Shown here: positions 28,036 through 30,147 of the stretch, piece by piece
Numbering within the stretch: position 1 is the first letter of the stretch
How the letters are laid out: each line of letters begins with the position of its first letter
NCBI GenBank assembly: GCA_017555455.1
Contig: JAFZGJ010000195.1
Coordinates: 87,284 to 151,283, forward strand
DNA length: 64,000 nt
Source: Lachnospiraceae bacterium
Lineage (GTDB): Bacteria > Bacillota > Clostridia > Lachnospirales > Lachnospiraceae
Reading direction: 5' to 3'
Program-made: the position numbers and the translations under genes
The notes under the pieces: model-generated
Database searches by the model: none
Told to the model about the DNA's origin: nothing
What the model saw: only the letters and a program-made list of their open reading frames with translations

Positions 28036-30147
28036 ATGGCAGATTCTTATATTTTAAGACCTGTGAGTGATGTGTCTTTAACTCATACTTGTTCAACAGG
28101 TTCTAGTGGTTATGCCTTAATTGATGATGAAACTCACGATAGTGATTCTACTTATATTTCTTATAAATATGCTACTGGGTCTACTTCTAAATCATCTACA
28201 TTCTTATTTACATCTAAAGATAGAATATTAATCAATGCTACATTACCAGATGGTTTAATGTATGGTGATATAGACAAAGATGGTGTTCTTACACAAATTG
28301 ATGTTGACACTATTAAAGACCATATAATGAGTGGTGATGTAATCACAAATGCCACATCATTAAAATTAGCAGATATTGACGGTAATGGAAGTATACAAGC
28401 TAAAGAAAGACAATTCCTACAAAAACTTGTAAACCTTACTGATACATCTAGTTCAGGTCTTACTTATTTAGGTGATTCTAAAGGTAATTGGTCTTATAAT
28501 GCATCTAGAACAGATGGCGATGGCGGTATATTCTATTATGATGTTACTACCTCTGATTCTACAACATCATGCATGGCAATTCTCTCACCTAGTTTTGCTG
28601 TTAATAAGAATGAATTTTACTGCCAATGCTTTAATGGGTATGTAAGGGTATTCGCTAGAAACCTTCCTTACTATCCTATTAATGTAACTATTGAAATCTT
28701 CCAATCTAGCGAAGCTATTTCCGCCACATTACCTGCTGGTTTAATGTACGGTGATGTTGATATGAACGGTATATTAACAGATAGAGATGCTGATTATATT
28801 AGTGAGTATTTAGCAGATAATTCTGTTATTACTGATGAAACTAAACTTGCACTAGCAGATGTTAATGGTGATGGTGTTATTAACGGTAAAGATATTACAA
28901 GAATAAGAGCACTAGTTGGAGGGTCTTCTGTAGATGTAACAACATACCTAGGAGATTACTTAGGTAATTGGTCTCTATCTACTGATTGGGGAGCAGATTT
29001 TAGTAGAAGATTTTATCGTGATATTACCACTTCTGCTTCTACTACATCAACAATGGCTTTTGTTATTCCTAATGGTAATGTTCGTAGCTATAGTGGATTC
29101 CAATGTGAATGTTTTAATGGATATATTAGAGTTTATGCTAAAAACTTACCATTAAATGAAATATCTATAAATATTAGAGTTATTAATTTAGATAAAACTA
29201 TTTCATCTACATTACCTGCTGGTAAAATGCGTGGTGATGTTAATGGGAATGGTATTCTTGATGAAGAAGATTACAATTTACTTGCCCAACAATCTGCTGG
29301 TAGTTCTGTTATTGATGAAGACTATCTTGTTCTTGGTGATGTAAATAATGATGGTTCTCTTAATATAAAAGATGCTATGATTGTTTCCCAACTTACTGAC
29401 TTAGTGTATGACACAAGTAGTAGCGGTAATTATCAAGGCGACTATTTGAATAAATGGACTTTTAATAATACTGTACCAGAAGGCGACCCTAAACTATTCT
29501 ACTATGATATAAAAAATACACAGATAACTACAGATTACCATGTTTACATCTATACCAATTCTGATGCATCTACAAATGATTATATTGCAGAATGTTTTAG
29601 TGGGTATGTTCGTATTTATGCTAGAAATATTCCTAAAGCACAAACAACTATAAAAATCGGTTTAAAGCAAAAGAAATCTTATCCTTTAGATACAGTTTCT
29701 GGGGTAAAAATCCATGTAGTAGCTAGACGAACAGGTACATTATCAAATGCCAAGTGTAATTGCTATTTTGCTGTAGGTAGTGATGCAGGTGGTAGTAGTG
29801 CGGATATGGGTGTCGAAGTAAGTTCCTTAACTACCACTTATACAGATTATACTGCAAGTAGTGATGCAATGGCTGAAGCGATTAATAACTATATAGCTAC
29901 AAATAACGCATTCCCAACAATCTCTGCAAAATTAACTAATAGTAGCTCATATTCAAGTTATCAAATTCGTGTTACACAGATTTATGTTGAGTTATTATAT
30001 GGCGAAATAAACACCAATTTAAGAATTAAACAAAATAATTCGTGGACACCAGTAACTAAAGTATTTAAGAAGGTTAATGGTTCATGGGTAGAACAAACTG
30101 ATTTATCTTCATTATTTAATACAAGTACAAAATATATTAAAGGATAA
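28036..30147 (+). CDS. tail fiber/receptor-binding protein with five dockerin-like Ca-binding repeats
   Basis: GDIDKDGVLT / GDVDMNGILT / ADVNGDGVING / GDVNGNGILD / GDVNNDGSLN. Confidence 0.55.
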   Translation: MADSYILRPVSDVSLTHTCSTGSSGYALIDDETHDSDSTYISYKYATGSTSKSSTFLFTSKDRILINATLPDGLMYGDIDKDGVLTQIDVDTIKDHIMSGDVITNATSLKLADIDGNGSIQAKERQFLQKLVNLTDTSSSGLTYLGDSKGNWSYNASRTDGDGGIFYYDVTTSDSTTSCMAILSPSFAVNKNEFYCQCFNGYVRVFARNLPYYPINVTIEIFQSSEAISATLPAGLMYGDVDMNGILTDRDADYISEYLADNSVITDETKLALADVNGDGVINGKDITRIRALVGGSSVDVTTYLGDYLGNWSLSTDWGADFSRRFYRDITTSASTTSTMAFVIPNGNVRSYSGFQCECFNGYIRVYAKNLPLNEISINIRVINLDKTISSTLPAGKMRGDVNGNGILDEEDYNLLAQQSAGSSVIDEDYLVLGDVNNDGSLNIKDAMIVSQLTDLVYDTSSSGNYQGDYLNKWTFNNTVPEGDPKLFYYDIKNTQITTDYHVYIYTNSDASTNDYIAECFSGYVRIYARNIPKAQTTIKIGLKQKKSYPLDTVSGVKIHVVARRTGTLSNAKCNCYFAVGSDAGGSSADMGVEVSSLTTTYTDYTASSDAMAEAINNYIATNNAFPTISAKLTNSSSYSSYQIRVTQIYVELLYGEINTNLRIKQNNSWTPVTKVFKKVNGSWVEQTDLSSLFNTSTKYIKG

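Follow-up and report, generated by a model that had tools for sequence, protein, structure and literature searches.

A phage gene with three dockerin cassettes

The 64,000-nucleotide stretch analyzed here (hereafter the window) covers positions 87,284 to 151,283 of contig JAFZGJ010000195.1, assigned to a Lachnospiraceae bacterium in assembly GCA_017555455.1, and contains a block of phage fibre genes. The subject of the analysis is one gene of this block (28036..30147), which encodes a protein of 703 amino acids (aa) with three dockerin cassettes (Table 1). The open reading frame begins with ATG and ends with TAA; upstream of the ATG are the ribosome-binding site GGGGG and a further TAA in frame. 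TAG is recoded elsewhere in this phage, as described below; an effect of such recoding on the borders of the gene was ruled out by the TAA stop, the in-frame TAA upstream and the number of in-frame TAG codons, which is zero. The product is identical to protein IKY94_15775 of a metagenome-assembled genome (MAG) at NCBI, where it is encoded on a contig of 151.6 kb, and six full-length homologues were found, with identities of 45-85%.

A regular-expression scan located six calcium-loop segments in the protein, as compared to 0.0024 expected from 20,000 shuffles, and gave no further match in the window, whichever of its six frames was read. Every loop has D/N at positions 1, 3 and 5, with D/E as residue 12, and the loops pair into three complete two-segment dockerins. 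A preliminary description of this DNA, made from the sequence alone, had listed five dockerin repeats. The five segments it quoted are all present verbatim; the sixth, ADIDGNGSIQAKE at aa 113, had been missed. Nor does a FNGY..R..A.N.P module follow each segment, as had been stated: the motif CF(N/S)GY(V/I)R(V/I)(F/Y)A(R/K)N(L/I)P occurs in three copies (aa ~198-211, 359-372 and 520-533), one per dockerin pair.

The Pfam Dockerin_1 profile (PF00404) matched the protein over three stretches with 65.6 bits (E=4.5e-18), compared with a gathering cut-off of 22.9 bits. Solved dockerins (8x39, 2y3n, 6kg9, 3ul4, 2ccl and 1ohz) were matched directly by phmmer, with aa 397-453 of dockerin 3 aligning to 2y3n_B. 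The profile search and a structure prediction had been named in the preliminary description as checks of its dockerin type-I assignment, and both bear it out, the latter with a predicted three-helix dockerin fold. Thus, the protein almost certainly carries a genuine dockerin fold and, by the profile match, the match to solved dockerins and the predicted fold, its dockerins are bona fide type-I-like. The N-terminus, MADSYILRPVSD, has no signal peptide as judged by inspection of the sequence, and no glycoside hydrolase, carbohydrate-binding module (CBM) or cohesin family was matched in the protein or in 41 relatives that carry the cassette. The protein is not a secreted carrier with catalytic, CBM or scaffoldin modules, as a component of a cellulosome or amylosome would be.

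The protein consists of 65 N-terminal aa, three units of ~160 aa that share 33-44% identity pairwise, and 155 C-terminal aa. A model of the unit, built from 21 unit sequences, reached a predicted local distance difference test score (pLDDT) of 88.7 and a predicted template modelling score (pTM) of 0.83. It displays one β-strand ('ISATLP'), the three-helix dockerin and five further β-strands, in this order. Because of this element order, the high pTM and the natural boundaries of cassette insertions, we read each unit as a small β-sandwich with a dockerin predicted to be inserted after the first strand. In structure comparisons the β-module matched domains of phage fibres and receptor-binding proteins. 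Foldseek matches of the full-length model to Cry toxins, GH12 and birnavirus VP2 were insignificant and were disregarded.

The terminal parts of the protein were analyzed as a cassette-deleted construct, in which aa 1-70 were joined to aa 545-703. This construct matched the stand-alone proteins P0290-P0292 (225-231 aa) with 97% coverage and 39-48% identity, and the C-terminal half, which contains the invariant tail motif KKVNGxWVEQTDL, aligned to P0290-P0293. Since the N- and C-terminal parts are contiguous in P0290-P0292, the three cassettes are a tandem insertion in one loop of a scaffold protein of ~225 aa. In the SPβ-like phage L010, the scaffold gene lies in a block of fibre-like genes that has head genes (YonD_N, YonB) on one side and genes for the tail tube (YomW, YomU_Tube) on the other, and the adjoining gene has a weak Phage_head_fibr match and matches to tail-fibre PHROGs. 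The scaffold is thus a protein of the structural module, for which tail, neck and head positions are all possible. The gene directly upstream of the cassette-free scaffold has an LplA-B_cat Pfam match, to a domain like the catalytic part of lipoate ligases, in both L010 (8013-8747) and L011 (1337-1789), so the pairing of the two genes is conserved.

Table 1. Dockerin-bearing gene, its parts and the adjoining genes (positions in the window)
Feature	Position	Strand	Description
First fibre-block gene	24435..26012	+	525 aa, Ala-rich, fibrous-looking by inspection; 90% identical to the syntenic L007 region
Upstream fibre-block gene	26401..28023	+	~540 aa if TAG at 26527 is sense; ENA gene call
Dockerin-bearing gene	28036..30147	+	Complete open reading frame, 703 aa; scaffold protein with three tandem dockerin cassettes
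Scaffold, N-terminal half	28036..28230	+	aa 1-65; 86% mean pairwise identity among close homologues
Cassette 1	28231..28716	+	aa 66-227; β-strand, dockerin 1, linker, five-strand β-module ending CQCFNGYVRVFARNLP
Dockerin 1	28258-28434	+	aa 75-133; calcium loops at aa 78 and 113
Cassette 2	28717..29199	+	aa 228-388; β-module ending CECFNGYIRVYAKNLP
Dockerin 2	28744-28920	+	aa 237-295; calcium loops at aa 240 and 275
Cassette 3	29200..29679	+	aa 389-548; β-module ending ECFSGYVRIYARNIP
Dockerin 3	29227-29403	+	aa 398-456; calcium loops at aa 401 and 435
Scaffold, C-terminal half	29680..30144	+	aa 549-703; 84% pairwise identity among homologues
Downstream fibre gene	30166..31470	+	434 aa
Transglut_core protein	31553..32311	+	Secreted-looking; Pfam E=1.1e-10

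Distribution and variability of the cassette

With the unit profile, an exhaustive HMMER search retrieved 7,208 proteins at E<=1e-3; at E<=1e-30, 78 representatives remained. Among the best 150 examined, at least 41 cluster representatives contained the full profile of dockerin and module in one stretch, the others being poly-dockerin proteins. Dockerin_1 was matched by all of these 41 cassette relatives. Apart from EF-hand matches that overlap the dockerin, their sole other Pfam families were BppU_N, Prophage_tail, Phage_tail_C, PTR, Collagen, Mtd_N and DUF2345, and their PHROGs were largely tail-fibre or tail-protein families. PHROG 27381 ('tail fiber protein') matches aa 100-226 of the 703-aa protein.

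The genomic positions of the cassette agree with these annotations. In the temperate siphophage L004, one cassette is located inside the Prophage_tail protein P0008, which is of the Tal type and follows Sipho_tail and BppU_N, and a second in the 751-aa product of gene P0009, immediately before the M15 endolysin. The cassette protein P0010 of the temperate myophage L005 follows directly after Baseplate_J and Mu_Gp48, and the cassette gene of the 62-kb IMG/VR myophage L012 lies a few genes downstream of Baseplate_J/Mu_Gp48 and before an amidase. Scanning IMG/VR for the cassette yielded one locus, and a scan of the GTDB genomes with the cassette profile a single match, on a 2.9-kb contig of a Peptococcaceae MAG. 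No match to the whole 703-aa protein was found by tblastn among 50,697 deposited phages, and the matches to a single cassette were weak and covered the dockerin part only. The cassette is a mobile module that is restricted to phage-tail-type proteins and spread over siphophages, myophages and the ~150-kb recoded phage of the window.

Further instances of exchange were observed next to the gene. The product of the downstream fibre gene (gene 30166) matches, over its last 124 aa, the C-terminus of the myophage tail fibre P0010 with 93.5% identity. Its orthologue in the related large phage L008 contains an additional ~215 aa between VNIPT and GGGDGLPD, an insertion that the window gene does not have. 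The insertion comprises a cassette with a confirmed dockerin, one short repeat and a GS linker, and is nearly identical to the matching part of P0010. Because both the L008 insertion and the C-terminus of the gene 30166 product resemble P0010, the cassette evidently travels with exchangeable distal tail-fibre parts across very different phages. The phages that exchange the cassette presumably share hosts.

Variability was analyzed in a set of six homologues with 70-86% overall identity. The β-modules and termini are 84-95% identical in this set, the dockerins 46-58% and the linkers 30-43%; dockerin 3 is the most variable of the three (46% pairwise identity). In comparisons with the large phages L007 and L008, the ratio of nonsynonymous to synonymous substitution rates (dN/dS) was 0.40-0.88 in the dockerin and linker regions, as compared to 0.08-0.22 elsewhere. 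The synonymous rate (dS) of the dockerins is elevated as well, suggesting that they were replaced by copies of divergent origin. Within the dockerins, conservation was 0.80 at calcium-ligand and structural positions, 0.32 at the canonical cohesin-contact positions and 0.40 at the remaining helix positions.

Individual comparisons support such replacement. Unit 2 of the window protein and P0002 have β-modules that are 99% identical and dockerins that are 40% identical, and the nearest relative of the position-2 dockerin of P0004 is the position-1 dockerin of P0006 (82%). Dockerins have thus been exchanged without their β-modules and have moved from one cassette position to another. The variation takes the form of whole-dockerin replacement with elevated dS; no reverse-transcriptase family was present among the Pfam and PHROG matches of the scanned proteins, although no search was aimed at a diversity-generating retroelement. 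Variability of this kind is typical of a specificity determinant rather than a structural brace, and there is a reasonable likelihood that the dockerins are the specificity-determining binding element of the protein.

Proposed role and ligand of the dockerins

The best explanation overall, to which we assign a probability of about 0.5, is that the dockerins provide a virion-borne and exchangeable means of adhesion, with a cohesin-type module favoured as the ligand. The product of the fibre-block gene would be located on the virion surface, where the β-sandwich would serve as a rigid pedestal and the dockerin as an exposed, exchangeable binding head. With three dockerins per protein, the virion could bind in a calcium-dependent and multivalent manner to a protein on the host or in its surroundings. 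For this ligand, the favoured candidate would be a cohesin-type module of a surface-anchored scaffoldin, as in cellulosome- or amylosome-like systems, and swapping of dockerin alleles may retune the binding specificity. The separate steps differ in strength: that the 703-aa protein is a virion-exposed fibre or adhesin is quite likely, whereas a cohesin as the ligand of its dockerins, a target that the preliminary description had also proposed, is a tentative suggestion.

In a broader form, phages of anaerobic fibre-degrading communities would plug hypervariable fibre dockerins into the cohesins of host scaffoldins, so that the anchoring of cellulosomes or amylosomes serves as the phage receptor. 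Allele swapping would then reflect an arms race, and the triple cassette would broaden or strengthen binding through multivalency. We regard this scenario as speculative and, taken as a whole, rather unlikely.

The preliminary description had named the protein a tail fibre. That it is a fibre-type virion protein is largely supported by the presence of the cassette in tail-fibre or tail-tip slots of L004, L005, L012 and the related large phages, by the restriction of accompanying domains to phage-tail families and by the 93.5% identity between the gene 30166 product and P0010. Because of the position of the scaffold in L010, however, the protein may be a neck or head fibre rather than a tail fibre.

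Several observations weigh against the proposed role in virion-borne adhesion to a cohesin. No baseplate genes adjoining the fibre block could be recognised within the window, and the cassette-free scaffold of L010 is placed between genes for the head and genes for the tail tube. Confidence in the full-length model is poor at aa 1-62 and 550-703, with a pLDDT of <35 in the N-terminal half of the scaffold. The variability extends over the whole dockerin helices and not just the canonical contact positions (0.32 versus 0.40). Nor was a cohesin partner identified: Cohesin (PF00963) had no match in the scanned window proteins, in the Pfam lists of the loci L001, L004, L005, L007, L008 and L010, or in the 41 cassette proteins. 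The GC content of the phage is ~30%, which is below that of the known rumen cohesin carriers. The Lachnospiraceae label of the MAG that holds the identical protein may be a binning artefact. Finally, dockerins occur in many rumen Clostridiales that have no cohesin at all (PMC6118326).

For the latter reason, a dockerin alone is a weak indicator of the host, which it had been taken to reveal in the preliminary description; true cohesin carriers are few and mainly Ruminococcaceae (PMC6118326), and our searches gave no host. The endolysin of the phage (~51956-52783, in the stop-to-stop frame 51893-52783, with two in-frame TAGs) combines Amidase_2 with a C-terminal SLH wall-binding domain, suggesting that the host wall binds SLH domains, in keeping with a cell surface of the cellulosome type. 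Scaffoldins of several cellulosomal Clostridia are likewise anchored through SLH domains, which are, however, widespread. The search for endolysin homologues returned 6,883 matches, frequently on contigs of ~147 kb, and tblastn with the GyrA-like protein pointed vaguely to Firmicute-type sequences, which are probably bacterial contamination in the records concerned. A phage with a stated host, Ruminococcus phage NatCom_28274 (PV036439.1, L009), encodes at 538..1626 the 362-aa protein XTK83925, with a C-terminal Dockerin_1 match of 45.8 bits and a sub-threshold CBM26-like region. This shows that phages with a stated Ruminococcus host can encode dockerin proteins. XTK83925 resembles an amylosome-type component; its Dockerin_1 domain is a true one, but it has neither the β-sandwich cassette nor an evident fibre slot.

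The absence of Cohesin from every examined locus and the cohesin-free dockerins of many rumen Clostridiales (PMC6118326) would also agree with virion-borne adhesion to another ligand, as would the variation of whole helices and the Ig-like domain proteins that are present in the fibre region of L012. The dockerin would then be a generic calcium-stabilised head that recognises a different surface protein, a polymer of the wall or the matrix of plant fibres or biofilms, and would provide reversible primary adsorption or 'parking' near hosts, as with the Ig-like and CBM decorations of other phages. We consider this alternative somewhat doubtful.

An effector that is not part of the virion, and is either released at lysis or active during infection, appears improbable. 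Such a protein would use its triple dockerin to occupy or cross-link host cohesins, thereby remodelling the cellulosome or blocking superinfection. A catalytic domain is absent, three dockerins could indeed cross-link, non-structural genes surround the gene within the window, a linked gene encodes a secreted-looking protein similar to transglutaminases, and the dockerin protein of NatCom_28274 is of a non-fibre type. However, the N-terminus shows no signal peptide on inspection, the cassette is confined to tail-type proteins, including those of the Tal and BppU types, the scaffold is found inside the structural modules of L010, and the flanking genes share modules with tail fibres.

Purely structural dockerins, acting as calcium-dependent stabilisers or spacers with recognition elsewhere, for example in the C-terminal domain encoded by gene 30166, would explain why the calcium-ligand positions are the conserved part, and the neighbouring genes do have separate C-terminal domains resembling receptor-binding domains. 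A structural role would be expected to result in conservation, yet the dockerins evolve fastest and recombine most, with dN/dS values of up to 0.88 and swaps within 99%-identical modules. Moreover, both the scaffold and the gene 30166 orthologue exist without cassettes, which indicates that the cassettes are accessory rather than architectural and makes this explanation quite improbable. That the dockerins plug into a phage-encoded cohesin-like module, connecting fibres to the virion or to each other, is highly improbable: plug-and-socket assembly is the usual job of a dockerin, uncharacterised β-rich modules are present in the neighbouring fibre proteins and the scans covered the window, with ~87 kb of the 151-kb genome outside it, but a phage-internal partner is disfavoured because no Cohesin match was obtained in the window proteins, the related loci (among which the small temperate phages L004 and L005 were largely covered) or the cassette proteins, and because an internal assembly interface should co-evolve slowly, whereas the dockerins are hypervariable.

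The closest dockerins with which the favoured adhesion module could be compared are the type I cellulosomal dockerins of Clostridium thermocellum Xyn10B (PDB 1ohz/2ccl) and of Ruminococcus flavefaciens ScaH and group 1 (8ajy/5m2o). The cellulosomal dockerins are C-terminal, whereas those described here are internal in a β-sandwich and number three per protein, and the 703-aa carrier is a phage-encoded, fibre-type protein without signal peptide, catalytic module or CBM. The non-cellulosomal cohesin-dockerin complex of the Clostridium perfringens toxins NagH and NagJ (PDB 2ozn) joins secreted bacterial enzymes and has a known partner, in contrast to the virus-particle-type protein of the window.

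Insertions of binding modules are known from phage structural proteins, such as the CBM-bearing 'evolved' Dit, Tal and neck-passage proteins of lactococcal and Lactobacillus siphophages and the Ig-like T4 Hoc, and such accessory modules are thought to add adhesion to the host or the environment. By analogy, the 703-aa protein would seem to resemble these insertions most closely in function. As in the 'evolved' Dit and Tal proteins, the cassette occupies loops of conserved structural proteins and is present or absent among relatives (the scaffold, P0008 and the L008 orthologue of gene 30166). Unlike in the CBM and Ig-like insertions, the head is a dockerin, a connector between proteins, and alleles of the dockerin alone are swapped.

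No literature on dockerins in phage fibres or on the cellulosome as a phage receptor was found in full-text searches. Related items are a dockerin beside NosD-like genes on the contig of a putative virus of anaerobic methanotrophic archaea (ANME; PMC13452462) and a BLAST remark on gene 40 of Vibrio phage VvAW1 (PMC3558961). The UniProt/BFVD entry A0A8S5NQH0, 'Dockerin type 1 [Myoviridae sp. ctagO6]', matches the structure of the whole cassette (TMq 0.74, 153 columns, E 2e-8). This protein and PHROG 27381 have a single cassette, compared with three in the 703-aa protein, and are annotated automatically only. Thus, viral proteins with the cassette are already present in databases, solely with automated 'Dockerin type 1' labels.

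Few known protein connectors match dockerin-cohesin pairs in strength and specificity, and these pairs have been studied almost exclusively as parts of cellulosomes. If the dockerins of the 703-aa protein do bind host cohesins, surface scaffoldins would represent a new class of proteinaceous phage receptor in fibre and starch degraders of the rumen and gut. The matching of dockerins to cohesins would then provide a host-specificity code for uncultured phages that can be read from sequence, and the cassettes would be natural, compact and swappable binding modules for phage engineering. Even with a ligand other than cohesin, the cassette would be a clear mobile adhesion module with a conserved pedestal and an exchangeable head.

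Fibre block, codon usage and other genes of the phage

The fibre block (24435-31470) is syntenic in L007 and L008, although the fibre genes themselves differ. In all three phages it is flanked by a TROVE/DUF2828 gene on one side and by the Transglut_core gene and a gene similar to Major Vault Protein (MVP) on the other. No Pfam family above threshold was found for the first gene of the block (24435..26012). The gene directly upstream of the dockerin-bearing gene encodes repeated 'TPSxxxQTITPDxGYDGLSxVxV' modules, which are common to the cassette proteins P0009 (L004) and P0010 (L005) and to the gene that precedes the scaffold gene in L010 and L011.

The Transglut_core protein has a full-length homologue directly upstream of the L012 cassette gene (6008-6769; 44% identity, E 5e-67), and its gene has the equivalent place in L007 and L008. 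The gene is thus linked to cassette-bearing fibre genes in phages of unrelated types, and the protein could be a protease that is associated with the fibre or modifies the receptor. The MVP-like protein (32695-35145, 816 aa) contains the Major Vault Protein shoulder and Vault_3 repeat domains and is also encoded beside the fibre block in L007 and L008; homologues with ~42% identity are encoded by the 'huge phages' LR756500, LR756501 and LR756503, whose genomes measure 462-735 kb.

An amber-suppressor tRNA with the anticodon CTA is encoded at 17680-17754, and in-frame TAGs were observed, for example, at 17991, 18021, 18381, 26527, 50064-51630, 52058 and 52619. NAGPA, Amidase_2 and YadA_head domains span such codons, and the ENA gene calls read through them. 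Thus, the phage reads TAG as sense in a subset of its genes. The suppressor belongs to an array of 16 tRNAs at 12465-21241, including Ile-TAT, Arg-TCT and Leu-TAA, in a region with few long open reading frames and raised GC content. Around this array is a set of genes for RNA repair and tRNA maintenance, namely a TROVE/Ro-like RNA-binding protein (DUF2828), an RNA ligase, NADAR and a tRNA-His guanylyltransferase (Thg1), at 21547-23070, 37793-39223, 39216-39665 and 40408-41244.

The NAGPA domain (phosphodiester glycosidase) is part of a protein that also contains SPOR (17775-18785, three in-frame TAGs) and may be another enzyme that acts on the cell wall. Just upstream of the endolysin lies a second pair of adhesins or fibres, which consists of a ~780-aa protein with YadA_head-type 'SHAEG' repeats and 9 in-frame TAGs (49524-51866) and a ~572-aa protein with no family match (47780-49498). 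A 480-aa SPFH/Band_7 and flotillin-like phage protein is encoded at 44574-46016. Genes similar to GIY-YIG endonucleases were found between and after the genes for the topoisomerase II subunits (56055-56807 and 61476-62444), and the proteins encoded at 23121-24101 and 62902-63618 both display Cys-rich 'KCDCGN/CKCKCGN' repeats that are alike by eye. In-frame TAGs are present in all four of these genes, which have the appearance of mobile genes for endonucleases.

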